In this document: positions 8,782 through 53,616 of the stretch, one piece after another | Layout: every line of letters begins with the position of its first letter | How positions within the stretch are numbered: position 1 is the first letter of the stretch | DNA from: an uncultured virus (IMG/VR IMGVR_UViG_3300032401_000004) | Lineage: Duplodnaviria; Heunggongvirae; Uroviricota; Caudoviricetes | IMG/VR virus record: IMGVR_UViG_3300032401_000004 | Strand: one strand, 5' to 3' | Length of the DNA: 64,000 nt | Notes under the pieces: generated by a model | Seen by the model: only the letters and a program-made list of their open reading frames with translations | Told to the model about the DNA's origin: nothing | Database searches by the model: none | Made by a program: the position numbers and the translations under genes

Positions 8782-8783
8782 GT

Positions 8784-9212
8784 TCACACTCCTGCAGCGC
8801 GCTCGGCGCACGTGGGACCGAGGCCCCGTTGAATCGACTCAGGGTCCGTGAGTGCACGGCCGCAGCGTGAGCATGCGCCCTCGTGCCAGACCTCCACGCG
8901 GTCGCTAGTCAGGTTACCCCACGTCCAGGCCCATGCCTGCGCGCTCGGGGCCGTCGGCGCGATCTTGCTCTTGCCGCCGTGGCGGTACTTGCCGTCGGCG
9001 AAGATCGTCCCAAGGAACTCGTAGTCCTCGGTGTTGTTCGGGCCGGTGAGCAGCGAAACGAAGAACGGGGGCTCACCGCTGCCGGGGCGCGGCTTGGCGC
9101 GCTTGATCTTGTAGGTGAAGCGGTCACCCGAGCGCTTGGACACCAGCGTCACCGTGGCGTTTCCGCCCAGGATGTAATCCCTGCGGTATTGTGGATCGAG
9201 CTGCCCGGCCAT
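8784..9212 (-). CDS. DUF6011-like Zn-binding phage protein
   Basis: CSRCGRALTDPESIQRGLGPTC. Preceded by an AGGAGG RBS cassette. Confidence 0.75.
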   Translation of the reverse strand: MAGQLDPQYRRDYILGGNATVTLVSKRSGDRFTYKIKRAKPRPGSGEPPFFVSLLTGPNNTEDYEFLGTIFADGKYRHGGKSKIAPTAPSAQAWAWTWGNLTSDRVEVWHEGACSRCGRALTDPESIQRGLGPTCAERAAGV

Positions 9213-15757: not shown

Positions 15758-16005
15758 CCGACACAAAAATCAAAGAGTTGCGCGTCGCCGCTGCTGCCGC
15801 CGAAGCCGCCTACCGCGTCGCCGCTGCTGCCAACGACGCCGCCTACCGCGTCGTCGACGCCGCCTACCGTGCCGCCAACGACGCCGCCTACCTCGTCGCC
15901 GCCTCCACCTACCGTGCCGCCAACGACGCCGCCTACCGCGCCGCCTACGACGCATGGAATGCGTATCAAGCCGCGTTGGAAGCGGAGAAGGACGGTGCCG
16001 AATGA
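15754..16005 (+). CDS. Ala/Tyr-repeat protein, paralog 2
   Basis: MTDTKIKELR...AYQAALEAEKDGAE. Confidence 0.65.
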   Translation: MTDTKIKELRVAAAAAEAAYRVAAAANDAAYRVVDAAYRAANDAAYLVAASTYRAANDAAYRAAYDAWNAYQAALEAEKDGAE

Positions 16006-16289
16006 CTGACACGAAGATTGAGACGTTGCGCGCCGCCTACGACGCAGCCGAAGCCGCATACACAACCGCCCGCACCGACCACGCCGACGCCGCTGCCGAA
16101 GCCGCATACACAACCGCCCGCACCGACGACGCCTACCGCGACGCCTACCGCGCCGCCAACGCCGCCCAGCGCGTCGCCAACGCCGCCCAGCGCGTCGCCT
16201 ACGCCGCCGCTGCTGCCGCCGCCTCCGCCGCCTACGACGCTTGGAAGGCATACCAAGACGCGTTGAAGGCGAAGGACGGTGCCGAATGA
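16002..16289 (+). CDS. Ala/Tyr-repeat protein, paralog 3
   Basis: MTDTKIETLR...AYQDALKAKDGAE. Confidence 0.65.
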   Translation: MTDTKIETLRAAYDAAEAAYTTARTDHADAAAEAAYTTARTDDAYRDAYRAANAAQRVANAAQRVAYAAAAAAASAAYDAWKAYQDALKAKDGAE

Positions 16290-16522
16290 CTGACGCAGAT
16301 AAGATCGAAAGCTTGCGCGACGCCTACGTCGCTGCCGAAGCCGCATACACAACCGCCCGCACCGCCCACGCCTACGTCGCTGCCGAATACTGCAACCACG
16401 GCCACTACGTCGCCACCGGCAAACCGGTGAACCACGAGTGCCGGGTGATCCCGCCTGCAGCGCTGCGCGCTGAAATGGAAGGCAAGTACGCCGAGGCCAT
16501 AGAGCTGATGGTGACGCGATGA
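16286..16522 (+). CDS. Ala/Tyr-repeat protein, paralog 4 (unique C-terminus)
   Basis: MTDADKIESLR... Confidence 0.6.
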   Translation: MTDADKIESLRDAYVAAEAAYTTARTAHAYVAAEYCNHGHYVATGKPVNHECRVIPPAALRAEMEGKYAEAIELMVTR

Positions 16523-25495: not shown

Positions 25496-26008
25496 ATGCT
25501 TCGAGACTACTTACGACGCCGCATCTCGCAGGCCATCGAGGTCGTGCAGATCCTCAAGAGCGTGCTGGAGCCTGCCCCCGAGCCAGCGCCGGAGGTCTCG
25601 CCGCGTGTAGCGTTGCTGCGCGATCTGGTGGACCGCCGCATCATCCCGCCGCATTGGTTCGACATGCTCAACGATCGGAGAGTCATCTCGAACGACGTGC
25701 ATGTGCCGCGCTTGGAGTCCAACACTTCGAACGAGGAGTACTTGGAGCTGCAGCGTGTCGAGGATCAACTGGGCACGATGTTCAAGCACTTCTGGGATCT
25801 CGGAGGGTGCGACGCTGAGAGCAAGTACCACGCGCTGGCTGACTTCCTACAGACGGCGCACCGCATGACCACGGGTGCTCGGCAGCAGTACGAACAGCTC
25901 CGGTTCTCGGAAGGCGAGCTACGCATGTCCACGCGGCCCGAAGACGTGAAGGCCGCAGCCGACGAGGCTGCAGCGGCTTACGAAGACGAAGACGAGGAAC
26001 AACAATGA
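25496..26008 (+). CDS. Hypothetical protein with acidic tail
   Basis: Follows the promoter. Confidence 0.65.
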   Translation: MLRDYLRRRISQAIEVVQILKSVLEPAPEPAPEVSPRVALLRDLVDRRIIPPHWFDMLNDRRVISNDVHVPRLESNTSNEEYLELQRVEDQLGTMFKHFWDLGGCDAESKYHALADFLQTAHRMTTGARQQYEQLRFSEGELRMSTRPEDVKAAADEAAAAYEDEDEEQQ

Positions 26009-26571
26009 GCTTGCGTCCTAACCCCAACCATCCTGATCTCTACCAACACACAGACACCGGGCAGATCTTCAACATGCGGGACTTCCACCCTTGGGAGCTG
26101 ACCTCGCAGTTCCAGCGCAACCGCGAGATAGCGCACCGGCTTCGCGGGTCCAGCGGGGAGACACGGCTTCTGGAACGCTGGGCTGTGGTGTTGCACCCCT
26201 GGCACGAGGTCATCCCGCCGTCGCTCACGGTGGACTTGATCATCAACGACCTGATGATCGTGCATGCCATGCCTTTGTTCCGCATCGCCGAGCCGTTGAA
26301 GCGTAGTTCCGATTGCGACTTAGAACGCCGTCTGCTCAAGCTCGAAGAGGTTGTGCGCTTGACGGCGCAGCGCGGCGACGGTGTGGTGCCGACGCTGGGG
26401 GAGCACAACGGACGCAACCCGAGCGGGAAGCTGGACACACAGGTCTTGAACCAGCACCACGAGCTGTGGGCGCGCATCAACGGCCCCTCGGATGACTTCG
26501 GCCCGCTGATGGAGATGACCAAGCACTTCATGCTGCGCCTGCAGGGGCGTCAGCGGTTCATTGTGAGGTGA
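26005..26571 (+). CDS. Hypothetical protein
   Basis: ATGA overlap. Confidence 0.65.
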   Translation: MSLRPNPNHPDLYQHTDTGQIFNMRDFHPWELTSQFQRNREIAHRLRGSSGETRLLERWAVVLHPWHEVIPPSLTVDLIINDLMIVHAMPLFRIAEPLKRSSDCDLERRLLKLEEVVRLTAQRGDGVVPTLGEHNGRNPSGKLDTQVLNQHHELWARINGPSDDFGPLMEMTKHFMLRLQGRQRFIVR

Positions 26572-29755: not shown

Positions 29756-30067
29756 CTATTCCTGCAACGGTGGAAGCTGTGGGGGGTTCATCGGCTCTTG
29801 CAGTTTGCGCAGGAGCCAGAGGGTTAAAGGGTATGCCGGTCCAGCCGCTAGCACGAGCTGCGTCTGGTGCTGCCCTTGTGCGAGGCTCAGGGCGAGCACG
29901 CCAGTCGTCCAGAAGCCCATGCAGGTGTCACAGGCCCACGGCTTCTGACGGCGCATGATGGCGCGGTGCACTGGCGGCAGAGCCCGCAGAGCCAGGACCA
30001 CACCCGCAGCCGTCGCGCCCAGGAAGAGCGACCACATGAGAAAGCTGCTGAGGTCTTGGAAGAGCAT
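29756..30067 (-). CDS. Membrane protein with CxxC-W motif (DUF1360-like)
   Basis: WACDTCMGFW between TM segments. Confidence 0.55.
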   Translation of the reverse strand: MLFQDLSSFLMWSLFLGATAAGVVLALRALPPVHRAIMRRQKPWACDTCMGFWTTGVLALSLAQGQHQTQLVLAAGPAYPLTLWLLRKLQEPMNPPQLPPLQE

Positions 30068-30195
30068 CCAGAATCAATCCTACAGGGGACAAACAACTTT
30101 CGTAACTGCGGGGCTCAGCGGTTTATCGAGCCGCTGCCCCGCGCCGGTCTACTCATGCCCACGGTCGAAAGCCCGTGTGAGTCCCCCGAAAGTTT

Positions 30196-30360
30196 TCAAG
30201 GCCAGGCATGCGCTCCTCGCGATCCGCCTTTGCGGATCTCACTCCAGAGGGCCCACAGCCCGAGACCCAGCACAACAAGAGCCACGCCCCCGGTCTGGGT
30301 GACACCCCCGGCCGAAGGCGTGGACTCTGCGAGCCCTGCAAACGGTGCGTTGTGGGCCAT
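30196..30360 (-). CDS. Small membrane protein (FAGLAE motif before TM)
   Basis: VALVVLGLGLWALW. Confidence 0.5.
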   Translation of the reverse strand: MAHNAPFAGLAESTPSAGGVTQTGGVALVVLGLGLWALWSEIRKGGSRGAHAWP

Positions 30361-30438
30361 AGCCCGAGTCGTCGTCCAGCTGGTGGATTCGAGTGACATT
30401 AACAGCTCCTCTTGGCCAGGCGAAACGACGACTCTGAG

Positions 30439-30531
30439 CTACCGACGCTTGCGGGCGCGCTTGTTCTTCAAGCAGCGACCGGTGCGCTTGTTCACGCCGT
30501 GTTTGCAGTGCAGTTTGCTTTTCTTTCGCAT
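30439..30531 (-). CDS. 30-aa protamine-like peptide (not in the ORF track)
   Basis: AGGAGA RBS. MRKKSKLHCKHGVNKRTGRCLKNKRARKRR. Confidence 0.6.
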   Translation of the reverse strand: MRKKSKLHCKHGVNKRTGRCLKNKRARKRR

Positions 30532-30609
30532 GACGTTCTCTCCTCAAGGGGACAGGAATAGCTCCTGCCCGGTTAGCGTAACCTCAACTGAGGCCCTGTG
30601 TAAACCCTG

Positions 30610-30810
30610 TCAATCATCGTACGTGCAGGGGCAGTCGTCGGTGAACTCCAGCTCAGCCTTACCCCCCTTGCTGCGCACCGTGATGTACTTCTTGGCCGAG
30701 GGCACGAAGTACACGTGACGTTTGGCGTTGGAGTATTCGGGCAGCGACTGAGCACGGTAAGCGCGCAAGTGACTTTGCAGATCTTCGAACGGGATGAGGA
30801 CGGATTCCAT
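30610..30810 (-). CDS. Small hypothetical protein
   Basis: RBS present; in the operon. Confidence 0.6.
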   Translation of the reverse strand: MESVLIPFEDLQSHLRAYRAQSLPEYSNAKRHVYFVPSAKKYITVRSKGGKAELEFTDDCPCTYDD

Positions 30811-30822
30811 GGCGGTGGGCTC

Positions 30823-32034
30823 CTAAAACTTTGTAGGGCGTGAAGCAGATATTTGACGCGCGAAGATGTCCAACTGTTGCGCCCAGGGCGACAGTCCGGG
30901 GAGGGGCTCTTGAGGTGACACAGACTGCGGTGTTGCTACTTGCGCTTGCAGCTTTGCGATCTGTTGTTGCAGGGCTCTTGCTTGCGCGCTCGACTGCTTT
31001 CGGAACTGCGCGGCCTGATGGGCGAGCAGCTTCGTCAACTGCGCGGCCTGCTTGCGGCTGCGTTCACGCTCGTCCCGCAAGCTTTTGGCAGAGGGTTTAG
31101 AAGCCTTGATCTGTGCTGTGATGCGCTTCTCTGTGGCTGCTAGCCGCGCTTGATCTGCTGAGCGCTCCTGCTTGTGCTGCTTGATGTCAGCCAGCGCAAT
31201 CTCCAAAGCTGTTTTGGCGCGTTGCGTCGCCACGGCTTTCGCTTCCACCCCGGACATGGCCGCTAGAAAACGCCCGGACATGCGCGCCGAAGAGAGCACG
31301 AGACGCGCGTTCTTGCGACCTGCGTCTGTTGGCGAAAAAACTGTGTTCGCCACTTTATCCCCGTACGCAACTTCCCCAGGAGAGAGTTTCTTGAACTTTC
31401 CAGAGCGGAAACCCCACCGCTCTCGTTTGCCTCCGGGAACACCTTTCGTGACCGAGATCACACCGCGATGGAACAAGGTTGACCACTTGACGAGGTTCTT
31501 CTTCCACTGATGCTCTTTGCCGAGCACCTCTGTATCTAGACCGTGCGTGTGCGCAAACTGCAGGGCCCGGATCAGGTCGTCGCGCGAGCGTTTGGCATCA
31601 CGTTCAGTGGGGGAGGTGCTGAGCGCGTCCGCGATGCCTCCGACCACAGTCTCTGAAATGAACCCACCCACCGCGCCACCCAGCGGTCCTGCCAACAGGG
31701 TCCCGATGGCTGTGCCCGCAACACCGGAGATCTTGCCTACGGCCGAAGGTTCGATACCTAACGCTGACATGAGCGGACCTTTGACCAAGTCCGAGATCTG
31801 CCCTGCGGGGCCTGCGAGCTGACTCAAAGCCGCTTGTGCCGCGCCCGCAGCCTGCTGCAGCTTGTCCTCGACACTGCCTTTTCCGGACAAGATGCCTTGC
31901 GCGAAGTTGAAAGCCTCGGGGGGCAACCCACTCTGCGCGATGGCTTTCTGGATCGGATCCCCGACACCGCTTGCTTTTACCAAAGCGGACATCGGAGACC
32001 CGGCCAGCGCCTCGCCCGTCAGGATCTCCAGCAT
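30823..32034 (-). CDS. Gly/Ala-rich and coiled-coil virion protein (possible DNA-delivery or membrane protein)
   Basis: Glycine-zipper-like segment AGPLGGAVGG and a basic coiled-coil tail. Confidence 0.65.
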   Translation of the reverse strand: MLEILTGEALAGSPMSALVKASGVGDPIQKAIAQSGLPPEAFNFAQGILSGKGSVEDKLQQAAGAAQAALSQLAGPAGQISDLVKGPLMSALGIEPSAVGKISGVAGTAIGTLLAGPLGGAVGGFISETVVGGIADALSTSPTERDAKRSRDDLIRALQFAHTHGLDTEVLGKEHQWKKNLVKWSTLFHRGVISVTKGVPGGKRERWGFRSGKFKKLSPGEVAYGDKVANTVFSPTDAGRKNARLVLSSARMSGRFLAAMSGVEAKAVATQRAKTALEIALADIKQHKQERSADQARLAATEKRITAQIKASKPSAKSLRDERERSRKQAAQLTKLLAHQAAQFRKQSSAQARALQQQIAKLQAQVATPQSVSPQEPLPGLSPWAQQLDIFARQISASRPTKF

Positions 32035-32046
32035 GTCCTCTAGGCC

Positions 32047-32838
32047 TTACGCAACGCGGGTGATCGACATCGACGTGGGCATGCCGAACTTCGGAGTCTT
32101 GTTGGGGAACAGGATGTTGCGTCGCAAACCACGCAGCGAGCGGATCGTGCGGCCGATGGCGTTGGCCCGGCCGATGTCTCCCGACCTGCGAGCCTGCAGC
32201 GCGATGCGCTTGAGGTTCTTGAGCTTGGACTGAGAAGCCAAGCGATCGAACACCGCACATTGGTTGGCGAACAGCCGCGTCTTGAACGCAGCGTCGGACA
32301 CGCCGTCGAGCGGCTCGGAGAGTGCAAGCTCAGCCAAACCAGCGTTGCTGGGGGTCAGCGGCAGGTCTCCGGGCCAGCTGGAGCCGCCCGAGTAGTTCGC
32401 GCCTGCGCTCGCGTCAATGACGGGACCACGGTTGTAGTAGCCGGGGATGTTGCGGCTGTTCTCGCCTTCCAGAGAACCGATGGAACTGCCGTAGTGCTTG
32501 TCGATGTCCTCGACGCGATGCCCGTCGTACATGCCGTCGCGGCCTGCTAGGCCAGAGCTGCTCGGAGTCAGCGGCAGGTCACCCGGCCAGCTCGAACCCC
32601 CGGAGTAGTTCGCGCCCGCCGATGCGTCGATGACGTTCATCTTCTCGTAGTACGTGAGCAGATCTTCATCCGCATCCGCGAGACCCGAGTTGCTCGGCGT
32701 GAGCGGCAGGTCGCCCGGCCAGCTCGAACCTCCCGAGTAGTTGGCTCCCGCCGAAGCGTCGATCACATTCCTACGTTGGTAGTACGTCGGAATGTCTCCG
32801 AGGCCATCCAAAACCGCAATCTCTTCACCGAATCGCAT
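32047..32838 (-). CDS. Polyprotein-like protein with three near-identical ~30-aa repeats
   Basis: VIDASAGANYSGGSSWPGDLPLTPS(N/S)(S/A)GLA three times. Confidence 0.85.
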   Translation of the reverse strand: MRFGEEIAVLDGLGDIPTYYQRRNVIDASAGANYSGGSSWPGDLPLTPSNSGLADADEDLLTYYEKMNVIDASAGANYSGGSSWPGDLPLTPSSSGLAGRDGMYDGHRVEDIDKHYGSSIGSLEGENSRNIPGYYNRGPVIDASAGANYSGGSSWPGDLPLTPSNAGLAELALSEPLDGVSDAAFKTRLFANQCAVFDRLASQSKLKNLKRIALQARRSGDIGRANAIGRTIRSLRGLRRNILFPNKTPKFGMPTSMSITRVA

Positions 32839-35800
32839 GCTGACCTCCAGAGTTTCTGTTTCTCAAATATAAAGCCAGACCGCCCAGGCCCACAACCCCC
32901 AGGATGGTCATTGTTTTCCAGTCGGTTCCGGTGGGTTTGTCCAGCTGCTTGCGCTGTTCCACCGTGAGCTTGCCCTCAGTCACGTACTTGTCCAGTTGAG
33001 CGTCTCGGTCAGCGAGCGTCTGAGTCTCGCTGGTGAGCGCATCCCCGACACCCTTGACGACAATGCCTGTTGTGGCTGCCGTCCGCACCACAGGCAATCG
33101 AAGCAGTGTGAGCAGCCCCGTCCACGTTGCGCCTGCAAACCTGGCGATCCATGGAGCCGCCACCTCGACTGCTTGCACCGCCTGTCCGAGGCCTTGGAGC
33201 GCCGCAGCGGGCGACGTCGAGAGCGGTGCCTTCAAAAAGTCCACCATCTCGGTAGAGGTAGACGCCAGTTCCCCCAAGTAGGCTTCCAGACTGGACACCC
33301 CTGCTGCCGGGGAGGCTCCTGCACCTGCCGCGTCCACCGCTTGAGCCACCGAAGGCAACGCGATGATCTGCGCGGTGCGCAGCTTCACGCGCTCGGCGGC
33401 CGTGAGCCAGGCCTCAAAGGCTTGCTCTACCTCCGGGGCGATTGTGCCCCCGGTAGCGACGGCTGCCTGCATGGTCTGGATGTACCGGGGACCTTTAGAA
33501 CCCAGCGACTGTAGAGCCGCCACCAGACCATCCCAGACCGCGCCAGGATCGGTCGGTGCGCCCGGTGAAGGCTCTGGAGTCGTACCGCCACCGCCAGGGG
33601 TTTCCCCTCCAGCCCCGCCACCACCGGACGCACCGCCGCCACTGCCACCACCGCCGCCACTGTCAGGAGCACCGCCGCCACTGCCACCACCACCACCACC
33701 ACCGCTGGGCGTGGAGGAGCCATCCCCGCCTCCGGGGATGCGCTGATCTGAAGTACCGCCGCCGGTTGTACCGCCGCCAGTTGTACCGCCACCCTCTGTG
33801 GGCCGTTCCAACCAGAGCTTCTGCCCGGTGACGATGGTCGCCTCATCCCCTGGCATCACGCGCACCGTGGTGTTGTCAGGGCTGACGAGCTTAGGGAACG
33901 CCATGGTCCAGATGGGCGCGAGCGTCGCGGAAGGCACGAAGACCTTCAAGAAGGCCTCCTGTGTCGTGGGGTCCCACGTTCCGCTCAAGCTAACCTGTGG
34001 GATCTCCGGGCGCTTCCTGCGCACAATGTCCAAGGTGCGCTGTACCGCGAGCACAGGCACGACCACGGTGGCCACCTTGAGCAGCGCTGTCACGTCCGCT
34101 TGATCTTTTGGAGTCTCAGGCTTCGGAGCGGGCGCGCTCTTCGCCGCTTCACGCAGCATTGCGACGAACGCCTTCGGCAGCTTCACGGAGCTGGCCGACT
34201 TTTTCGCGGACACCACGATGATCTTCACCGTGCTGCCACCGGGCTGCTTGTTGAGCCACGTGCGCAGCGCTTGCTCTGTGTTGCGCCCCCAAGTGCTGTC
34301 CACCTTGAGCTTGCTCTTGGTCAGCGTGTTGAGGCCCTGCTGCACCGTGTTCGCGGCGATCTCTTCGACGTCGAGCACCGACGGCTTGTCTGGCTGCTTC
34401 ACAGCCTCGTTCTTGAGGGCGTTGTAGGTGTCAGAAACGACCGATGCCTTGAGCGCGTTCAACGTCCCTGTCACGCCTGCATTGAGTTTGCGCGCTGTGG
34501 CGACGGTTTCCCACGCCTTCTGCGTCGAGGGCCCAAACTTTTTATCCAGTGTGCCTTTGGTCTTCGGCACGCCCAGGCGATGCACGATGTCCTGCATCTC
34601 GGCGACGAGAATCTCAACAGATCCCGAAGGCACATCCTTCTTCTTCTCGGGCTCTGGCTTGCCGCCAGCTGCGGCGTCCGCTGCGGCACTGAGCGCTGCA
34701 ACGGTCGCAGGATCTACTGCAGCCGTGCCTGTCTGATATGCGACGAACTTGGGGTTGAGCTTGCGAGAGCGCGATGAGACCCCCCAAGCGTGCGCGAGCG
34801 TAGGCGTGAACGTACCGCTCTTGGGTAGTTTCTTTGTGGTCCAGCCAAGCTTGTAGAGGATGTCGAACGCCAGAACGATCGGGATGATCGGCGTATCTGT
34901 GTTTTTGCTTGGCTTGGCAGGAGTCTCAGGGGTCTCAGGCGTCTTCTTCTGCTCTGGGGTCTTCGGCTGCTTGGCCTTCATCGCCTCTTCGAGCATCGTG
35001 ACGTAGGCGCTCGCATTCAAGCGCGCCGTCTTGCCGTCCACACGCACGAACGTCGAGTCAAGCTTGCGGCCCTTCGTCGAAGTTTCCCACGCCCCTTGCG
35101 TCTTGGGGCCGAAGAGTCCGAAGTCACGCGAGCCAGGACGCGGGATAGTCGAGGACTTCCAGCCGAGCTTAATGAGGAGGTTCTGGACATCGGCCACCGA
35201 CTTATCTACGAGGTCCGCACTGGGCGCGGGCTTCTTGTCATCCTTCACCTTTTTGTCGGTGATGGTGTTGTCCTTCACCGGCTGCACGCCGCTCTTGGCG
35301 GCATCGGCGGCGATCTGATCGTACGTGGCCTGCGAGACGCGGGCCGTCTTGCCGTCCACGCGATCAAAGGCTACGGGCAAGTGACGGTTGGCCGCAGACA
35401 CGGCCCAGGCGTGAGAGGTCTGCTTGCCGTACGCGCCGTCGCGCGTGAGCTTCTTCGTCGTCCAGCCGACGCCGTAGAGCAGATCCTGCAACTCCAGCAC
35501 GGTCTTGACGACCGAGCCCGGCACGATCACGTCCTTGGCAGGAGCGCCCACCGACACGACGTTGCCGCGTGCTGCAGCTTGCATCGCGTCGAACGTCGCG
35601 TGGTCCACGTACACAGAATCGGAGTACTCGGCGGCCTTCAGCACCGGGTTGAGCTTGCGCGTGGTGGCCGAGATGCCCCAGGCCTTGGCGAGCATGGGCG
35701 TGTACACACCGGAACGCGGCAGCTTCTTGGTCGTCCAGCCCAGGCCGTACAGGATGTCAAAAGCATCTTTCACGGCGTGCGTGGCGAGCATGCCTGTGGG

Positions 35801-36187
35801 CGTGGTGGCAGGTGCGGCCGTCTGCGCAGGACGCACGACGGCCGCAGGTTGCGCAGCTTGAGGCTGCGCACCGCCAGAAAGAGCAGCGAGCGTAGCCGGG
35901 TCCACGAACGCCTCGGTGGCGCTCGCACGGTTGAACGTAGGGTTCAACTTGCGGCTCTGCGATGATGTGCCCCATGCGCCTGCGGTCTTCGGGCCGAAGA
36001 GCCCAAAGTCCTTGCTGCCTGGACGCGGGATGGTCGTGGCCTTCCAGCCGAGACCGATCAGGATGTTCTGGAGATCCGCGACAGTGCGGCGCACAAGGCC
36101 GCTCTGCACCGGAGAGTTTGATGTGGCAGCGAAGTCGCCGAGCGCGAACTCTTCCAGGTACTCATGGATGTTGTTGCCAAAGGACAT
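32825..36187 (-). CDS. Large membrane-anchored protein with about 8 peptidoglycan-binding-like repeats
   Basis: Repeats V..(L/V)Q..L..LG.....G.FG..T..AW, a Gly linker and a C-terminal TM. Confidence 0.75.
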   Translation of the reverse strand: MSFGNNIHEYLEEFALGDFAATSNSPVQSGLVRRTVADLQNILIGLGWKATTIPRPGSKDFGLFGPKTAGAWGTSSQSRKLNPTFNRASATEAFVDPATLAALSGGAQPQAAQPAAVVRPAQTAAPATTPTGMLATHAVKDAFDILYGLGWTTKKLPRSGVYTPMLAKAWGISATTRKLNPVLKAAEYSDSVYVDHATFDAMQAAARGNVVSVGAPAKDVIVPGSVVKTVLELQDLLYGVGWTTKKLTRDGAYGKQTSHAWAVSAANRHLPVAFDRVDGKTARVSQATYDQIAADAAKSGVQPVKDNTITDKKVKDDKKPAPSADLVDKSVADVQNLLIKLGWKSSTIPRPGSRDFGLFGPKTQGAWETSTKGRKLDSTFVRVDGKTARLNASAYVTMLEEAMKAKQPKTPEQKKTPETPETPAKPSKNTDTPIIPIVLAFDILYKLGWTTKKLPKSGTFTPTLAHAWGVSSRSRKLNPKFVAYQTGTAAVDPATVAALSAAADAAAGGKPEPEKKKDVPSGSVEILVAEMQDIVHRLGVPKTKGTLDKKFGPSTQKAWETVATARKLNAGVTGTLNALKASVVSDTYNALKNEAVKQPDKPSVLDVEEIAANTVQQGLNTLTKSKLKVDSTWGRNTEQALRTWLNKQPGGSTVKIIVVSAKKSASSVKLPKAFVAMLREAAKSAPAPKPETPKDQADVTALLKVATVVVPVLAVQRTLDIVRRKRPEIPQVSLSGTWDPTTQEAFLKVFVPSATLAPIWTMAFPKLVSPDNTTVRVMPGDEATIVTGQKLWLERPTEGGGTTGGGTTGGGTSDQRIPGGGDGSSTPSGGGGGGGSGGGAPDSGGGGGSGGGASGGGGAGGETPGGGGTTPEPSPGAPTDPGAVWDGLVAALQSLGSKGPRYIQTMQAAVATGGTIAPEVEQAFEAWLTAAERVKLRTAQIIALPSVAQAVDAAGAGASPAAGVSSLEAYLGELASTSTEMVDFLKAPLSTSPAAALQGLGQAVQAVEVAAPWIARFAGATWTGLLTLLRLPVVRTAATTGIVVKGVGDALTSETQTLADRDAQLDKYVTEGKLTVEQRKQLDKPTGTDWKTMTILGVVGLGGLALYLRNRNSGGQHAIR

Positions 36188-36597
36188 CAGACCACCACCG
36201 AGGCCACAACGACCGACACATCGTTCGCCAGAGGCGCAAAGAGCGCATCGCTCACAGCCTGCGCGTAGAGTGCGTCATCAGGCAGGAGCACGCCCTGGTA
36301 CCGCTGCGTGGGGTTCAAGAGAATCTGGAACCCGTTCTGGCCTGCGGTCTCCGATGAGGAGAACGAGAAGTACGCTCCGCTGCCGGGCAACACCGCGAGC
36401 GTGGACTGCGGCAGCCAGATCTCGAAGTACATGACTTCGAGACCCGACACCTGATCGACCAGGCGCAGCGCCTCATTGATGGGCACGCGCTTGACGCTGC
36501 GACGTCCGTGCGCAATCCGGCGCGGCCCGACGATGGAGGCGAAGTACGCCCGCATGCTCAGGTTGCCCGCGCCAGGATCTTTGTTGAAGTCGAACAC
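36187..36597 (-). CDS. Small beta-rich virion protein
   Basis: In the capsid-like cluster. Confidence 0.6.
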   Translation of the reverse strand: MFDFNKDPGAGNLSMRAYFASIVGPRRIAHGRRSVKRVPINEALRLVDQVSGLEVMYFEIWLPQSTLAVLPGSGAYFSFSSSETAGQNGFQILLNPTQRYQGVLLPDDALYAQAVSDALFAPLANDVSVVVASVVV

Positions 36598-36638
36598 GAG
36601 TCACCTTTCAGGGTTTGAGGGCGTTCGCCCCCTCGTGT

Positions 36639-37244
36639 TCAGCGCTCTGGAGCACAGGCGACGTAGTCGCCTTCGATCTGGATGCCGAACTCCTTGGAAG
36701 CGCCGACGAGGGCAACCCAGCGTTGCGTGTCGATGGACCACTCGGTGGAGAGGTCGGTGCCGGGCACCGTGATGTACACGCCGTCCCACTCGGCAATGCC
36801 GCCCGCGCCGTTGCGGATCAGCTGAGCCATGTTGATGGGGCGCTTGAAGATCTCGAAGTTGCGGCCCTCTTCACGGACCTGGACGCCCACGAGGAACGCC
36901 GCGTTGCCGATGAAGTCAGGGTCCATGGCGAAGCCGATGATGCGGCGGATCGCGAAGTTGTAGCGGCTGATGAGCGAGACCTTGTCGCTCTCAAACGTGA
37001 TGTTACCCAGCGGGTCAATCTGCACGCGGTACGAGAGGCTCTCGATGCGCATGTCCTCGGGAGCAATCGCGCCTGACGCGAGGTCCGAGTAGTACTGCAC
37101 GATCGGGCCAGGTGGCACCGGTTGCGAGCCATCCGGCTCGGGCATGTCAGCTTGCGGCACGTTGGCCGGGACGCCCAGCCTGGGAGCACCCGCTGGCGCG
37201 ATGCCAGGCGTGCGACGGTAACGAGCGAGGTTGGGCTGAGCCAT
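36639..37244 (-). CDS. Putative jelly-roll capsid protein (second or minor)
   Basis: Alternating beta-strand pattern and size; adjacent to the MCP candidate. Confidence 0.45.
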   Translation of the reverse strand: MAQPNLARYRRTPGIAPAGAPRLGVPANVPQADMPEPDGSQPVPPGPIVQYYSDLASGAIAPEDMRIESLSYRVQIDPLGNITFESDKVSLISRYNFAIRRIIGFAMDPDFIGNAAFLVGVQVREEGRNFEIFKRPINMAQLIRNGAGGIAEWDGVYITVPGTDLSTEWSIDTQRWVALVGASKEFGIQIEGDYVACAPER

Positions 37245-37301
37245 GGAATCTCCGTCAAGCGGTGAGAAGGTGACGTAGCAGAGAAGCTGAAAGGCGCGGA
37301 C

Positions 37302-37333
37302 GCCTCGGCAAGCAGTACACCGCTCGCCGAGGC
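37302..37333. terminator. GC-rich stem-loop downstream of the MCP candidate
   Basis: GCCTCGGC...GCCGAGGC inverted repeat. Confidence 0.35.
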
Positions 37334-37351
37334 ATCGACACGCGAGCGCGA

Positions 37352-37999
37352 CTACTTCGTGACAGCCGAGCGCACCAGGCCGTGCAAGAAGCAGGTCACG
37401 AGCATGGGCTGCTCCGTGGTCGGGTTCACGTACGGAATGGGCGGGGTCTGCGTCGAGAGCCACTGGCGCGGGTCGAAGCGCAAGAGGCCTTCCAGCTCGT
37501 GATTCTGGTTAAGGAGCTGCTTTTTCACGAGCTTCGAGGCTGAAGCCGTCGCGGGCACGCCGACCGAGACGATACCTGCATCGGTCTCGGTGGTGTTGCC
37601 GTAGAGGCCGTAGCCGCTCGGGAAGCAGATGGCTTGCCCTTCCGCCTGGAGAAGATCGTTAATCTTCATGCGGAAGTACGCGTTGTCCACGACCTTCTTG
37701 ATGTCGCGAGGCACGGTGATGGTGTCACCGAGGGCCAAGCGGAAATACAGGCCAATGCGGTCGAGCACCATCGACTCACCAGACGACAGCTTGCGCGGCG
37801 TCTTGATGTTGGTGTCGGTGTCGCGCTTGCCCTGGATGTCTGCGAAGAAGATGAACTGCGTGCCAGGAACGATCGCGCCCGCCGGAATGGCGATCGTGTC
37901 CCACTTGTCGCTTTCGCGAAAGTCACGGATGTTCAGAATCTGTTGGGTCTCGGAGTCTTTGAACAGGCCCGGCTGGCCATCGATCGGGTTCATTGCCAT
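37352..37999 (-). CDS. Putative single jelly-roll major capsid protein
   Basis: 215 aa and beta-rich (WDT..., FF...K...DTN...L, FLHGL). Strongly biased codons and central position in the late module. Fold is inferred only. Confidence 0.5.
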   Translation of the reverse strand: MAMNPIDGQPGLFKDSETQQILNIRDFRESDKWDTIAIPAGAIVPGTQFIFFADIQGKRDTDTNIKTPRKLSSGESMVLDRIGLYFRLALGDTITVPRDIKKVVDNAYFRMKINDLLQAEGQAICFPSGYGLYGNTTETDAGIVSVGVPATASASKLVKKQLLNQNHELEGLLRFDPRQWLSTQTPPIPYVNPTTEQPMLVTCFLHGLVRSAVTK

Positions 38000-38088
38000 A
38001 ACGGTTTCTCTCTTTTCGTCAAAAAGTGGGGTTTTGTGAGCACACGCCGCTCATCCATGGCGTTCGGGACGATTCGGCCGGGCCGAGA

Positions 38089-38703
38089 TCACGACATGTA
38101 CGGGTTGTAGTTCTCGCCGAGGGTCTCGCCAGCCACGACGGCTGCGTCGAGACCGTTGAAGCCCATCAGGGCCTCGGGGTTGACGACGGTGCCGTGCAGG
38201 CCGCCGAACGCGCCGCGCGATGCACGAACGCTGGTCGCGCCCATGCCACTGTCATCACTGCCGTAGGCAGCGAGCAGCGCTTGGTCGCTCTGGGAGAGCG
38301 AGTCGTCGCCTGCAGCTGCGAACGATCCGAGCGGGTACACCGCCGTCGCGCCGCCGCCGATCAGGTTCTTCTCGAAGTAACTGTCGATCAGCTGCGCCAG
38401 GCCGAGGCCCGACACGCCGCCCACGATGGCCATCGCGGCATCGCGGTTCTTGTCCCAGAGCAGACGGCCACCAATCATGCCGCCGAGGATGCCGACGAGG
38501 GCAGCCACGCGGTGACGGTTGGGTTCCTCCATCTTCGAGAGCATCTCCGAAGCCGACAGCTTCGGCAGCGCCCATGCTGCCAAGAGAATCGACGCGGCGC
38601 TTGCGCCCGCAGCGATCACTTGATCTTTGAGCATCTCGGCCGAGTACAGGCCGCCCATGCCGTCGTCGTACATGTCCAAACCCATCAGGTCGTCGTATGC
38701 CAT
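38089..38703 (-). CDS. Multi-TM virion membrane protein rich in (G/L)MG and LG motifs
   Basis: Hydrophobic segments; LMGLD, GMGG, GMGA, LMGFNGLD and TLGE. Confidence 0.7.
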   Translation of the reverse strand: MAYDDLMGLDMYDDGMGGLYSAEMLKDQVIAAGASAASILLAAWALPKLSASEMLSKMEEPNRHRVAALVGILGGMIGGRLLWDKNRDAAMAIVGGVSGLGLAQLIDSYFEKNLIGGGATAVYPLGSFAAAGDDSLSQSDQALLAAYGSDDSGMGATSVRASRGAFGGLHGTVVNPEALMGFNGLDAAVVAGETLGENYNPYMS

Positions 38704-38820
38704 CGTGATGTTGCCTCCAGTTAGGGGTCCACGTTTCATACGGGACCGAGCGTTCGCAGCGACGATGAACTGTCGCTACGACGCAAACCTAACGCCGGAA
38801 GATTTCACGAGTCAATAGAA

Positions 38821-39540
38821 TCAGAGATTGAAGACACGCGCTTCAGCGATCATCGACTTCGGTGGCTCCCATCCAAACGGCATCGCAACACTCGCGTCGA
38901 AGCTGATCCACTTGCGCGGTCGTGCACGCGGCAAACCAATCTGCGCGTAGATGTGATTCCATGTTGGTGCGCCCTTGGTTCGGATGACCTTGAAGCGACA
39001 AGGCAGACCGAGTGTTGCAGCAGCAGCACACGCAAGCGTCGAGTAGTCGTCGCAGTCTCCGGTATGCAACGCGAGCGTGTGACTCGGTTTTTGGTACGTG
39101 TCGATTCCGGCAATATCCGAGGTGTATCGGACGTTTGCGCGCACGGCATCGAACAGGGCCTTGGCCTCTGCAAAGTTGTTTTTTTCCGGCACGCACCAGT
39201 TGTCGCCACAGCGGGCGTTTACAGCCCGGCGGGCAAACTCAAACACAGCCGGGTCTCGTTTTCCGGCCTGTACCAGTTCGCGGAGGTAGTCGATGCGCCC
39301 GTCTAAGTCCTTGATAAGATAGGTGCGCAGACGGATGCTGCCCGATGGTGTCGGGACGAAAACGTCGTCCAAACTACTTACACCTACAGGTCTCACTTTT
39401 TTTCGCGAGGCGGGTCTGGACGGCCCTCTGGAGGGTCTTCGAGACGTTCCAGAGGCCTCCTTCAGGTGGCGAACGCCACCAGAAATCTGACGAAGACCCA
39501 TCGCGATGCCTGCGAGACCAAGGACGAGTTTGAGCGACAT
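38821..39540 (-). CDS. Transglutaminase-fold cysteine enzyme (putative maturation protease) with N-terminal anchor
   Basis: VRYTSD, TGDCDD (Cys), WNHIY (His) and SFDAS (Asp) form the triad. Confidence 0.85.
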   Translation of the reverse strand: MSLKLVLGLAGIAMGLRQISGGVRHLKEASGTSRRPSRGPSRPASRKKVRPVGVSSLDDVFVPTPSGSIRLRTYLIKDLDGRIDYLRELVQAGKRDPAVFEFARRAVNARCGDNWCVPEKNNFAEAKALFDAVRANVRYTSDIAGIDTYQKPSHTLALHTGDCDDYSTLACAAAATLGLPCRFKVIRTKGAPTWNHIYAQIGLPRARPRKWISFDASVAMPFGWEPPKSMIAEARVFNL

Positions 39541-39635
39541 GGGTAGAGCCTACGCTTGGCCGCGTGTGTGTGTCCAGACGGCGTTGGGATCGTGCTTATG
39601 CGCAAGCGTACAAACGTACTACGCAAGCAAGCGAA

Positions 39636-39749
39636 CTACAGGCACAAGATCCGTTGACGCCGTCGATGCGAAACGCCTACTGGGACGGTGTGCCGGAGCT
39701 GGAGCTGGAGCTGGAAGACTGAATGTAGCGGTTTGATAAGAAGAAGCAC
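39636..39749 (-). pseudogene. Degenerate third copy of the spike-gene 5' end
   Basis: (V)LLLIKPLHSVFQLQLQLRHTVPVGV versus MLPLIKPPHSTFRLRYSGPVGV. Confidence 0.7.
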
Positions 39750-39761
39750 GGTCTTGTGTGC

Positions 39762-41057
39762 CTAGGGTGTTGCGTCGTTCAGAAGCTTCTTTGTCCAGCC
39801 GACGATCACGTTGCCGCCCTCAACGAGCGAGGTGTTGCTCGCGAGGTCCAGACGCAAGAACTTGCCCGCCGGTCCCGTGTACGTGCCCGCCATGCCGCAC
39901 GAGAAAAAGCCTGCTGGCGGGAAGGCCACCGCAACATCCCCTGTGCATGTGAAGCCTGCCTGGAAACGGCAGATGTTGAACGTGGCCCATGTGTTGCACG
40001 TCAGCAGTCCACTGAAGCGCGAGCGCCAAGCGCCGAAAATGTTGGACGCGGTGCCAAAGTTTGCGGCCTTGCGGAAGCGAGCGTTCACGAGCTGCAGCGT
40101 GATGATCGGATTCTTGCCGTTCATGTCCACACACTCGGCAAACGTGTTTCCGAATATCTCGCAGTTCAAGCCAAACTCGCAGTGTCCTGAGAGCGGCTGT
40201 CCGCCCGTCACGAGGTCGATCTTGATCTGTCCTGCGATGCGTGGGCCGTACCACGCGAGGTGATTGGTGCCAAAGTACGGCGTGCTGTCGAGAGAGCCGA
40301 TGATCACCGAGGGACGAATGTCTTCTGTGAGCGCACGAGAGTCTCCTGTGATCGTGATGGAGCGGTTGCTCACAGCGTTCGGTGCCCAGTTGACCGCGTC
40401 GAAGACGCCGAGCATCCACCCACCCCGGCCGGTGATCTGCAAATGGAAACCGTTTGTGACGTCGATGGTGACGTCCTCGTCGTACTGCGTGAACGGCGCA
40501 GGGTCGATCACGTAGCCTGAGCGAAAGCGCGCTGCCGAGTCCACCGGCCCCAGCGCGTCGTGTGCGGCCTTGCAGGCGTTCACAGCGGCTTGCAGGGTCT
40601 TGTACGGGATGTCGCTGCCCACAGCGGCTGTGGCGTCATTACCCAGGACGGAATCCAGACGCGCGACGTTCGTCGTGCCGACGGCCGGTGCGCTCGGAAC
40701 GCTCGGCTTCGCGATGAAGTACGCCTGGCTCCCGGCCGCCAGACCCTCGATGGAGTGCAGGTACCAGACGTCGAGAGCCAGGACATCCGTGGGGGCCGCT
40801 GCAGACAACGTCAGAACCAACGTCGTAGGAGTGCCTGTGACAGGCAGGAACGACACTGCTGACGCGACAGCAGACACGCCAGAGTCAATCTGCTGCACGA
40901 AGACCAGGACGCTCTGCTTGAAGTCGCGGGTAGCACGCACCGCTTCTGGCAGAGCCGTGAGATCCCAGGTCTGTTGTACGCTGACACCTGCCACGCCCAC
41001 TGGGCCGCTGTACCGGAGCCGGAAGGTTGAGTGAGGGGGTTTGATGAGTGGAAGCAT
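39762..41057 (-). CDS. Putative receptor-binding spike or fibre, paralog 1
   Basis: About 118 N-terminal aa nearly identical to 41178-42752, then GND..A...PYKTLQAA and a beta-helix-like body. Confidence 0.7.
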   Translation of the reverse strand: MLPLIKPPHSTFRLRYSGPVGVAGVSVQQTWDLTALPEAVRATRDFKQSVLVFVQQIDSGVSAVASAVSFLPVTGTPTTLVLTLSAAAPTDVLALDVWYLHSIEGLAAGSQAYFIAKPSVPSAPAVGTTNVARLDSVLGNDATAAVGSDIPYKTLQAAVNACKAAHDALGPVDSAARFRSGYVIDPAPFTQYDEDVTIDVTNGFHLQITGRGGWMLGVFDAVNWAPNAVSNRSITITGDSRALTEDIRPSVIIGSLDSTPYFGTNHLAWYGPRIAGQIKIDLVTGGQPLSGHCEFGLNCEIFGNTFAECVDMNGKNPIITLQLVNARFRKAANFGTASNIFGAWRSRFSGLLTCNTWATFNICRFQAGFTCTGDVAVAFPPAGFFSCGMAGTYTGPAGKFLRLDLASNTSLVEGGNVIVGWTKKLLNDATP

Positions 41058-41177
41058 GTGCCCCGCTTTCTGGGAGTCTAGGGTAGAATCTCGTAGGAGA
41101 ATGAAAACTGTAGGTATTGCAGAGCCACGGTGGTTGCGCTCCAAAGCACCTGTGCGAGATCGGTCACGTTGCGTGAC

Positions 41178-42752
41178 TTACGGGATGGGTCCACCCAGCA
41201 AACCAGCGACGGCTGCTGCAAGGCGGTCCAGTGCCGTCCATACGTCGGTCGGGCTGCCCGCCCAGTTGGCGGGTGCTGCGGGCGTGTAGGGGATCAGGTT
41301 TTTGTTTGTTGGCTCGCGCGAAAGCATGAACCACTGGGCACCTGCGCTCGTATATTGCCATGTGCGGACGTCGCCACTGCCTGGCAATGGGGCGCTGGCT
41401 CCTAGCAACCCGGTGTCATCGACTATCATGTCCGCGCCGAAAGCGACCACGGTGCCGGGGCCGAAACCGACTGGATCATAGACAGCGAAGCGGGCACCAT
41501 CTACTCCAGCGGGCAGCGTGAGCACGTAGGCGGGAGGGGCAACAGCGGCATACGTGAAGCCCGGCGTTATAGCCTGCGACGCCGCCACCTGCAGGGCCCG
41601 CAAACCCGGCTCTAGCTTCAGTGCGTCAATCGCTCCCTGCACGTTACTTGAACCAAGCAGCGGGAGCACAAGCGTGTCGTCGTAGGACGTGCCTCGTGCG
41701 GTGGACATTGGCACTGCGTTTACGGTGCCGAGGAAAAGTGTCTGTGTGACTTGGGGTGCGCTTGAATCGAGAATTTCAAGCAGCGTGGTCGTGGCGTCGC
41801 CAGAGAAAAGCTGTGGTGAGTAAGCGTCCGCGCCCGAAAACGCTTGAGAGCCCGCCTGCGAAATGATCGCGTGGATGATCACCTTTCCCGGCTCGACAGC
41901 AATCATGGCCAGCGATGGGTCGGCCGCGTTGTTGTTGAACGTCGCCCCCTCAAAAGCCGCGATCTCTGAAAATGTTCCTGCCATGCGGATGGCCGACTTG
42001 GTGGACCCAAGCTCCAGGTTGACTTGCCCGCCCTCGCGACAGATCAAGACCCCTCCGTCGACGTTTTGCAACAACATGTCGTGCTGCGTACACACACCAT
42101 TCACCGCCACCGACTTGACGGTGAAGAGGTTGCGCAGTCTCCCCCCGTCGGTGATTGTCGCCGTCATTATCGCGCCCAGGAGCAGTGTGTACCCCACGAG
42201 CTGCACCCGGCCAAAACACTCAGTGTCCGTTTCCTCAGGGATGATTGCTGGCGCGATGCTGCTGTCCACCTGCACGATGATGTTGCCCGACGTGGCTGCA
42301 ATGCGTGCTTCGACTTCCGCCCACGTCTCAACCACCGCACCGTTCGACGGCACGCCGGGTCGCCAGATGATGTTCTCTTGTGCCCCGCTGCCCGCGCCGG
42401 GCTTCGCCACGAAGTACGCCTGGCTGCCCGCCGCCAGACCCTCGATGGAGTGTAGGTACCAGACGTCGAGAGCCAGTACATCTGTAGTGGCCGCCGCCGT
42501 CAGCGTCAACACCAGTGTCGTGGGGGTGCCTGTAACGGGCAGAAACGAAACTGCTGACGCAACAGAAGACACGCCAGAGTCAATCTGCTGCACGAACACC
42601 AGGATGCTCTGCTTGAAGTCACGGGTAGCCCGCACGGCTTCGGGTAGAGCCGTGAGATCCCAGGTCTGTTGTACGCCGACACCGGCCACGCCCACTGGGC
42701 CGGTGTACCGGAGACGGAAGGCCGAGTGGGGGGGTTTGATGAGAGGAAGCAT
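41178..42752 (-). CDS. Putative receptor-binding spike or fibre, paralog 2
   Basis: Shared N-terminal domain, different body, with NVQGAIDAL and DVWTALDRL fibre-type motifs. Confidence 0.7.
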   Translation of the reverse strand: MLPLIKPPHSAFRLRYTGPVGVAGVGVQQTWDLTALPEAVRATRDFKQSILVFVQQIDSGVSSVASAVSFLPVTGTPTTLVLTLTAAATTDVLALDVWYLHSIEGLAAGSQAYFVAKPGAGSGAQENIIWRPGVPSNGAVVETWAEVEARIAATSGNIIVQVDSSIAPAIIPEETDTECFGRVQLVGYTLLLGAIMTATITDGGRLRNLFTVKSVAVNGVCTQHDMLLQNVDGGVLICREGGQVNLELGSTKSAIRMAGTFSEIAAFEGATFNNNAADPSLAMIAVEPGKVIIHAIISQAGSQAFSGADAYSPQLFSGDATTTLLEILDSSAPQVTQTLFLGTVNAVPMSTARGTSYDDTLVLPLLGSSNVQGAIDALKLEPGLRALQVAASQAITPGFTYAAVAPPAYVLTLPAGVDGARFAVYDPVGFGPGTVVAFGADMIVDDTGLLGASAPLPGSGDVRTWQYTSAGAQWFMLSREPTNKNLIPYTPAAPANWAGSPTDVWTALDRLAAAVAGLLGGPIP

Positions 42753-52385: not shown

Positions 52386-52684
52386 GCGTTTCCTCAGTTT
52401 CTGGGTGTGACGACCGTAAGACGGTACGCCCACCGCTGTTTTTCTTCAAGAAGCAAACCTAGTTTTAGGTCCCGGCGCGTCTCGTGCTGTTGCAGCTACT
52501 GCGGTTGCTGAGAAAACTGCTTTTTGGCACGCCGCGCAAAGTCTAACTTAGTTAAATACTTACAGTGTATCGCGGTTGAGCTACGCTCTAGGTCGCGTCT
52601 ATCACGGCTGCCGGAAAAGCACAATACTTGTTTTGCTCCCGTGCTGGAAAACTCTTGTAAACTCCTGAACGGATCCTTAGTTAT

Positions 52685-53608
52685 GTGCGGGTGTCGCCCC
52701 GCCCTTCTGCCACCCTCGAAGACTTCAGACGCTACATCAGCACCACGCGCAGCGGTCCCACCGGCCGTCGGTACGTGGTGGCCGCCAGGGCGTTCTTGAC
52801 GTGGTACGCGCAGCTTGGGCTGCCCCTGTCCAAGGCTCCGCGCGACACGCTGATGCGCTACGCCACCGGGCTGCTCGAAGCGGGCTACGAGCCCACGACC
52901 ATCCGCTCGCACTTGGCGGGTCTACACCGCTACCTCAAGTGGTTGCAAAACAAGACCGACATGGAACTGCCGGTGTTCCACGAGGCCGAGCTGCCGTCGA
53001 AAAAACGAAAGGTAAAGCCCACGCTCGCACCGGGCATGTTGTCGGAGTTCTTCCACACGGCCGCGTACCTGGAAGAGCCTGTGCGCACGGCCGCGCTGCT
53101 TTTGCCGTGTTCAGGTCTTCGCTCGGAGGAGATGGTCTCTCTGCCGCTTGGTTGTTTGAAACGCCTGAGCGTGGTGCTCGAAGACGGGAGCAAGAAAGAT
53201 GTTTTGCTCTTGAAGATTGTGGGCAAGGGAGGTCACGAGCGCATCGTCCCCTTGCTCGACGAGGGTGCAGCCGCCATCGTGCAGTATCTCAAGGGTTGGC
53301 GTCGCGAGCAGTCGAGCACGCGCTGGCTCTTCCCTGGTCGCTCGGGGCACCTCGCCACACGCACGCTGCGCAAGGCTGTGCAGAAAGTACGCGAGCACCT
53401 GGGGCCCGGCCACGACTACACGCCGCACAGCATGCGGCGCACGCATCTCACTGGCCTGTACCGCCAGGGCATCACGCCCACCATCCTCGCCAAGCTCGCA
53501 GGTCACGGTGACGTCCAGGTGCTCATCGATCACTACCTTGACCTCAATGAGAATGATCTAGCCAAGTCCGTCCACTCCGCTGGTGGTCGCCTGCTCAACA
53601 ACCCATAG
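52685..53608 (+). CDS. Tyrosine recombinase (XerC/D-like)
   Basis: SAM-like N-domain, SGLRSEE, GKGG, HSMRR, LAGH and DHY. Confidence 0.92.
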   Translation: MRVSPRPSATLEDFRRYISTTRSGPTGRRYVVAARAFLTWYAQLGLPLSKAPRDTLMRYATGLLEAGYEPTTIRSHLAGLHRYLKWLQNKTDMELPVFHEAELPSKKRKVKPTLAPGMLSEFFHTAAYLEEPVRTAALLLPCSGLRSEEMVSLPLGCLKRLSVVLEDGSKKDVLLLKIVGKGGHERIVPLLDEGAAAIVQYLKGWRREQSSTRWLFPGRSGHLATRTLRKAVQKVREHLGPGHDYTPHSMRRTHLTGLYRQGITPTILAKLAGHGDVQVLIDHYLDLNENDLAKSVHSAGGRLLNNP

Positions 53609-53616
53609 GAGACGTC

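Follow-up and report, generated by a model that had tools for sequence, protein, structure and literature searches.

A selected, repeated peptide unit in an uncultured virus as a possible portable docking or targeting tag

We found a genuine, strongly selected repeat in a new and unnamed protein family, encoded at 32047–32838 in a 64,000-nt stretch of DNA from an uncultured virus (IMG/VR IMGVR_UViG_3300032401_000004; G+C 61.5%), referred to below as the window. Three copies of one peptide unit lie in this protein, and the same unit, with a similar leader in front of it, heads a second family of large basic proteins encoded by the neighbouring gene in related viruses. A portable docking or targeting peptide is the best fit to these facts. 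That the unit is such a peptide, whether or not it is cleaved, and that the repeat protein is an internal protein of the virus particle, we regard as a little less likely than not.

Layout, selection and predicted fold of the repeat protein

The 25-aa sequence VIDASAGANYSGGSSWPGDLPLTPS occupies residues 25–49, 69–93 and 140–164 of the 263-aa protein (Table 1). The upstream flanks of the three units read LDGLGD-IPTYY, SGLAD-...TYY and GSLEG-...GYY, and their C-terminal ends are NSGLA, SSGLA and NAGLA. A scan with a unit profile located units in this ORF only within the window. There is a 14-nt overlap between the beginning of the repeat ORF and the end of the upstream 1120-aa ORF, and 12 nt separate the stop of the repeat ORF from the start of the next one.

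Table 1. Coordinates of the repeat protein, its parts and selected neighbouring genes in the window.
Feature	Position	Strand	Remarks
403-aa protein	30823..32034	minus	glycine-zipper N-half; basic C-half, residues 161-403, net +26
Repeat protein, whole ORF, 263 aa	32047..32838	minus	leader, three units in a predicted disordered acidic arm, basic helical C-terminal domain
C-terminal helical domain, residues 171-245	32104..32328	minus	pLDDT mostly >90
Unit 3, residues 134-169	32332..32439	minus	identical core at 32347-32421
Unit 2, residues 63-98	32545..32652	minus	identical core at 32560-32634
Unit 1, residues 19-54 (YY...GLA)	32677..32784	minus	identical 25-aa core at 32692-32766
N-terminal leader, residues 1-18 (MRFGEEIAVLDGLGDIPT)	32785..32838	minus	alignment of 24 relatives
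1120-aa protein	32825..36187	minus	PG_binding_1-like repeats, poly-Gly linker, hydrophobic segment at residues 697-719; place in the module conserved
201-aa protein, candidate second capsid protein	36639..37244	minus	conserved in 4/4 related loci examined
215-aa protein, candidate major capsid protein	37352..37999	minus	jelly-roll-like model
239-aa transglutaminase-core protein	38821..39540	minus	hydrophobic N-terminus; E 3.8e-13

At the DNA level, the 75-nt copies encoding the cores differ by 9 bases (copies 1 and 2), 17 bases (1 and 3) and 14 bases (2 and 3). All of these differences are synonymous, including a TCG/AGC serine switch, so that dN = 0. When the same number of random substitutions was placed in each pair, an all-synonymous outcome was obtained in none of 200,000 simulated sets. 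The many silent changes and the lack of any replacement indicate that purifying selection, and not only recent duplication, keeps the three copies identical. The original prediction, made from the DNA letters, had described three protein-identical copies with synonymous DNA differences, each preceded by a GLGD, GLAD or GSLEG motif and a YY dipeptide and each ending in (S/A)GLA; both the identity and the flanks were borne out.

Structure prediction gave no fold to the region that carries the repeats. AlphaFold2, run with an alignment of 24 relatives (A1), returned pLDDT <50 over residues 1–104 and 117–170, all three units included, with 10-residue block means of 26–51 over residues 1–170, and a confident helical domain at residues ~171–245. 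The ESMFold model of the exact 263-aa sequence in the ESM Atlas had a pLDDT of 0.39 and a pTM of 0.20, and the Atlas gave no usable look-alike for the protein. Since no fold was predicted over the repeat region, the repeats do not form a solenoid, which the original prediction had named as an outcome that would speak against it; this agrees with its idea of discrete peptide units. The net charge is -14 over residues 1–170 and +13 over residues 171–263, and in the models the repeats are short linear motifs on a disordered acidic arm. The 25-aa core has a net charge of -2, no K or R and a mean hydropathy of -0.08, and the whole protein lacks any hydrophobic 19-residue window. The membrane-active peptide that had been proposed as one possible product is therefore unlikely.

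A new protein family and a unit carried by two kinds of protein

Of 5,191 candidates in a word-indexed search, 136 qualified as relatives at E ≤ 0.01. Their sources were without exception metagenomes or MAG bins, and no Pfam domain was found among the 120 relatives listed of the 136. Alignment A1 shows four parts: a leader, the repeated unit, an LD-x-V-S-D hinge and a basic C-terminal region. The conserved family leader is EEIAVLDGL, in which I7, A8, V9, L10, D11 and G12 are invariant or nearly so. The unit consensus is V-[IL]-D-[AP]-S-x-G-A-N-Y-S-G-G-S-S-[WY]-x3-L-P-L-x-P-S-x-x-G-L-A, with G, N, GGS, P, PS and GLA invariant in each unit of the 24 aligned relatives. A unit profile built from 16 single units (A5) matched 141 proteins at E ≤ 0.001, 106 of them at E ≤ 1e-10, among 1.84 billion cluster representatives.

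Re-scanning 232 family proteins with the unit profile detected at least one unit in 225. One unit was present in 43 of these, two in 14, three in 136, four in 24 and five in 8. The copy number in homologs, which the original prediction had put forward as a check, thus ranges from one to five, three being the commonest. The linkers between units (n = 390) span 0–167 aa with a median of 20. These data bear on the reading of the units as a folded surface repeat of a fibre, adhesin or cell-wall-binding protein, which would pack only in an oligomer. A neighbouring protein does have PG_binding_1 matches, and aromatic, glycine-rich repeats of similar size occur in cell-wall-binding modules. However, neither of the two predictors gave a fold, linkers that vary between 0 and 167 aa cannot keep a solenoid in register, proteins with a single unit exist, there is no Pfam repeat, and the family profile had no match among solved structures (best E only 0.31). 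We consider a folded surface repeat highly improbable.

Conservation collapses right after the invariant GLA, as would be expected of a recognition or processing site. Among 322 units the following residue was G in 53%, D in 19%, A in 12% and E in 10%; some positions in this count were fixed by the search pattern, and A1, compiled without the pattern, has equal invariance. On its N-side the unit shows only loose conservation (YY/VL, R, N). With this sequence pattern the chain may be cut behind the invariant GLA; the original prediction had seen in the protein a multi-core precursor. A protease would cut after each GLA and release peptides of 44–71 aa, each ending in a unit, as the actual product; these might be a capsid cement plugging equivalent capsomer sites, with the basic C-terminal domain as a separate product. 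Part of this reading stood, namely the discrete units, which have no fold of their own in AlphaFold2 or ESMFold, and the GLA boundary, which is invariant at every unit end and followed by variable residues. Three units are also the mode of the family (136/225), extra small AGLG repeats (GGYGRAGLG) occur in the linkers of relatives, and a transglutaminase-core protein with Cys, His and Asp is conserved in the gene module. An analogy is offered by adenovirus, in which proteins VI and VII both use their N-terminal regions to fill a single pocket of the hexon, and the viral protease matures VI (10.1101/857581).

The precursor reading gains less from the other end of the unit, where no sharply conserved site marks the N-side. 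Inserted segments and linkers as long as 167 aa would also be unusual in a chain made only to yield peptides, the single unit in the long proteins described below looks like a leader and not like a product, and the charge and hydropathy of the core speak against a membrane-active product. Moreover, the called proteins of the window contain 11 GLA tripeptides in 19,255 aa, 3 of them in the repeat protein. GLA is hence not a window-wide motif: a cleavage site of that scope was ruled out, and the general cleavage motif, for which the repeats had been offered as the cleanest internal support, gains none from them. Taken together, we judge a precursor whose released peptides are the product to be rather unlikely.

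The near-identity of the units in the 263-aa protein is the extreme of the family and not its rule, a full match of the three 30-aa cores being seen in a single one of 128 three-unit relatives. In the three-unit relatives the mean identity is 0.78 between units 1 and 3 and 0.67 between either of them and unit 2, and in 63 of the 128 proteins no other pair is as close as units 1 and 3. Units are more alike within one protein (identity 0.74) than between proteins (0.63), which fits copies that track one partner per virus. The same likeness could also stem from gene conversion, since units 1 and 3 of the related locus L002 are only 4 nt apart; recent copying of units does occur there.

Some other assignments of the unit were tried and rejected. 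A match to DUF5850 (PF19168; 18.5 bits, E 0.0029, 21 residues) was dropped as a chance match, the curated cut-off being 25 bits. Matches to this domain in 5 of the 24 relatives were all under the cut-off, none was obtained at E ≤ 1 in 4 related records, and no mention of the name was found in the literature searched. The N-glycosylation sequon NYS was ruled out because relatives have G, K or Q in place of its S, and a sortase-like LPxTG reading of LPLTPS because T varies to L and M. A megablast search of 30000–40000 against 50,697 phage records gave no match, and locus scans started from single proteins yielded no relatives either.

The unit is not confined to multi-unit proteins. In the 43 unit-bearing proteins with one unit (of 225), it usually starts at residue 35–50, and many of the short ones may be fragments of short contigs. 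Nine single-unit proteins are 522–980 aa long and are counterparts of the window's downstream gene. In these long proteins the unit lies at about residues 40–85, behind a leader of the type ALEGLGLS (A/V-L-E/D-G-L-G) that is similar to the leader of the repeat protein. Both architectures were found together in several loci. In the complete genome G001, which contains locus L001, the three-unit protein has 344 aa and the protein encoded after it 560 aa; the latter bears a single unit at residues 18–58 and, behind it, a glycine-zipper and a long basic coiled-coil, and is the counterpart of the 403-aa ORF of the window. The metagenome loci L017 and L018 each pair a four-unit protein with a following ORF that has a single unit at its N-terminus, and in L014 the end of a unit-bearing protein (...SIGLAG and a basic helix) and a 155-aa membrane protein precede a 735-aa single-unit protein. 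In two further proteins, P0244 (620 aa) and P0245 (982 aa), three units are fused to a basic protein of the downstream type. The presence of both architectures in one locus, together with the fusions, shows that a leader-plus-unit cassette is common to two protein families of one cluster. A single unit near the N-terminus of a large, putative particle protein fits a portable tag better than a precursor of peptides only.

The gene module and the viral lineage

The repeat protein has a conserved position in a structural module. The gene order of the module is common to L001 and L002 and is found in part in L004 and L005 (MAG contigs of 85–86 kb). It begins with a recombinase, a low-complexity protein of ~700 aa, a transglutaminase-core protein and a membrane protein of ~200 aa, after which come the 215-aa protein, proteins of ~200 and ~140 aa, the PG_binding giant and the repeat protein. 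The order capsid-like gene, 136-aa gene, PG_binding giant and repeat protein is kept in L001, L002, L004 and L005.

The most conserved protein of the module is the 215-aa protein (55–66% to related loci), for which 264 relatives were found, with 64–97% identity among the 120 listed. Its AlphaFold2 model is a beta sandwich (pLDDT 68.5, pTM 0.66). Foldseek matches of this model in the PDB were weak (best E 5.6e-3), and nearly all were jelly-roll capsid proteins, with that of the archaeal virus SPV1 (6oj0_Z) on top. An exhaustive aligner matched SPV1 6oj0_Z with Z 6.7 and rmsd 3.8 over 125 residues, PRD1 P3 with Z 5.8, and also PBCV-1, FLiP, STIV and Sputnik, capsid proteins making up most of the best rows; all of these are middling values (Z < 8), which by the warning of the aligner may reflect a common beta sandwich only. 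BFVD matches were likewise weak, the ESM Atlas gave a lead, to be read as a lead only, to the PM2 P2 and PRD1 P3 capsid families (0.77), and a profile of the 215-aa family had no match among solved structures. Based on the model, the 215-aa protein is a probable jelly-roll capsid protein. Its first ~27–39 residues recur at the start of otherwise unrelated ORFs (window 26005–26571 (+), 52% over 27 aa; G001:C1:58593-58685 and 52611-52724), and this stretch may be a second portable N-terminal tag.

The place of the repeat gene directly downstream of the capsid-like genes raises the further reading of a scaffolding-type factor, in which the C-terminal helical hairpin would bind shell proteins, the repeats would recruit other components, and the protein would depart before or in the course of maturation and so be absent from the mature particle. 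The P22 scaffolding protein binds shell proteins by such a basic C-terminal helical hairpin, and the repeat protein likewise combines a confidently predicted C-terminal hairpin (net +13) with an otherwise disordered chain. However, it is the unit and not the helical domain that is the most conserved and selected part, fusion to a basic glycine-zipper protein of 400–700 aa would be atypical of a scaffold, and the separate low-complexity protein of 695 aa with its acidic tail is at least as good a candidate. We therefore regard a scaffolding role as improbable.

Other members of the module were also inspected. The transglutaminase-core protein keeps C163, H196 and D215 in each of the 4 sequences compared and is a candidate particle protease, cross-linker or wall hydrolase. 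The 1120-aa protein has several PG_binding_1-like repeats, a run of ~60 residues that is almost all Gly, and a conserved helical region. In P0003, P0005, P0008 and P0010, which are relatives of the repeat protein, one such PG_binding-like segment between units was seen by eye, for which Pfam gave no call. The low-complexity protein (695 aa) is rich in proline, glutamine and methionine and forms a conserved pair with the tyrosine recombinase (window 52685–55704 (+), L001 294–3393, L002 692–3902); the pair adjoins the structural module in relatives, and in the window it is found ~13 kb off on the opposite strand. A protein of 66–72 aa with a conserved ...C-P-C... end is encoded downstream of the basic protein, at 30610–30810 (-) in the window, with counterparts at L002 13144–13344, L004 14861–15061 and L005 14728–14946.

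Duplicated genes were observed elsewhere in the window. Two adjacent paralogues of 460 and 524 aa, at 39762–41144 (-) and 41178–42752 (-), have a near-identical stretch at the N-terminus (MLPLIKPPHS.FRLRY.GPVGVAGV.VQQTWDLTALPEAV), beyond which their sequences part; they resemble a pair of receptor-binding proteins built on one shared anchor. The overlapping tandem ORFs at 15954–16289 (+) and 16241–16522 (+) share the stretch EGRCRMTD...IE.LR.AYD/VAAEAAYTTAR and may be a recent local duplication.

The replication genes of the window include a D5-type primase-helicase, a RecD-like helicase and a tyrosine recombinase, and an M15 endolysin is also encoded. No match to terminase, portal, HK97 capsid or tail proteins was found in the 64 of its proteins scanned with Pfam and PHROGs. 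The IMG/VR records that contain L001 (82,687 bp) and L002 (88,820 bp) have direct terminal repeats and are rated 100% complete. In G001 (82,687 bp), where 45 of the 56 called proteins of at least 150 aa were scanned per library (not exactly the same 45), the matches were to replication, modification and lysis functions only; terminase, portal and HK97 capsid gave none, and profile searches can miss very distant forms of these. Likewise, no Pfam or PHROGs match to an FtsK/HerA-type packaging ATPase or to tail proteins was found in the related complete genomes. Judging from this gene content, the phages may represent a lineage of large bacterial viruses without tails that has so far not been described. 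Within the limited collection of literature searched, nothing fitting was found either for a described lineage of large jelly-roll phages or for the unit motif. The RecD-like helicase is 780 aa long in the window (6469–8811 (-)) and 1,094 aa long in G001 (77357–80641), where it carries an intein with a LAGLIDADG domain.

Proposed role and relation to known systems

In the reading that we prefer, of the unit as a portable docking or targeting peptide, the disordered acidic arm would display three copies of a short linear motif of 30–37 aa, all of which would recognise one site on a shared partner within the particle. The partner would most likely be the inner face of the capsid shell or a membrane protein associated with the shell. 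The repeat protein would then act as a multivalent tether between this partner and DNA or acidic lipid held by its basic domain. In related phages, the leader-plus-unit cassette would bring the neighbouring large basic protein into the particle as well. A viral protease, for which the transglutaminase-like protein is a candidate, may later cut at the invariant GLA.

Several known systems resemble parts of this arrangement. In phage T4, short N-terminal capsid targeting sequences, which can head unrelated cargo proteins, lead the internal proteins IPI–III into the forming head and are then removed by the head protease (PMC9026906). In a comparable way, the leader-plus-unit cassette heads two protein families, and it ends in an invariant tripeptide. 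The T4 tag has ~10 residues, is present in a single copy and belongs to an HK97-fold tailed phage with a known protease and cleavage rule, whereas the unit has 30–37 aa, occurs up to five times per protein and is accompanied by a jelly-roll-like capsid gene; no sequence similarity of the unit to the T4 targeting sequences was found. The giant phage SPN3US is said to have related propeptides.

A second comparison is with adenovirus, in which the N-terminal regions of VI and VII compete for one pocket of hexon, a jelly-roll capsomer, with VI being protease-matured and membrane-lytic and VII DNA-condensing (10.1101/857581). Here too, one N-terminal motif is common to two proteins, one of them small with a basic domain and the other large, basic and with a glycine zipper, and both are encoded beside jelly-roll-like capsid genes. 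There is no sequence relation, however, no multi-copy arrangement of this kind is known from adenovirus, and its protease comes from a cysteine-protease family other than that of transglutaminase-core proteins. The cleavage consensus of adenovirus does not fit GLA.

Encapsulin cargo-loading peptides are short, conserved peptides on disordered extensions that anchor cargo inside a shell, sometimes in several copies. They act within compartments of the HK97 fold, mostly sit at the C-terminus, differ in sequence from the unit and are not known to be cleaved. Minor cement and tape-measure proteins of jelly-roll viruses, such as PRD1 P30 and the minor capsid proteins of PBCV-1, are extended, largely unfolded and contact several capsomers from the inside; they are not known to carry a repeated identical motif or to serve as portable tags. 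The repeat protein, which is described here from sequence and models, is a member of none of these systems and shows no sequence relation to them.

A more far-reaching scenario would combine these elements in one undescribed lineage of large (83–89 kb) tailless phages with a jelly-roll shell, an internal membrane, a protein-condensed genome and no packaging ATPase. A membrane-anchored, transglutaminase-like cysteine protease would cut after GLA, the three identical peptides set free would stay in equivalent capsomer pockets, and the tag would deliver the large basic protein. We treat this full scenario as a long shot.

If the docking tag is true, it would open a direct way to study particle assembly in these uncharacterised phages, as the tag would mark internal cargo proteins and its partner would identify the inner surface of the shell. 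A portable tag of 30 aa could also serve to package foreign proteins inside these particles. The identical copies under selection are a rare and clean natural case of what would be multivalent short-motif binding. If the version with cleaved peptides is true, the maturation logic of adenovirus VI and VII would be extended to bacterial viruses.
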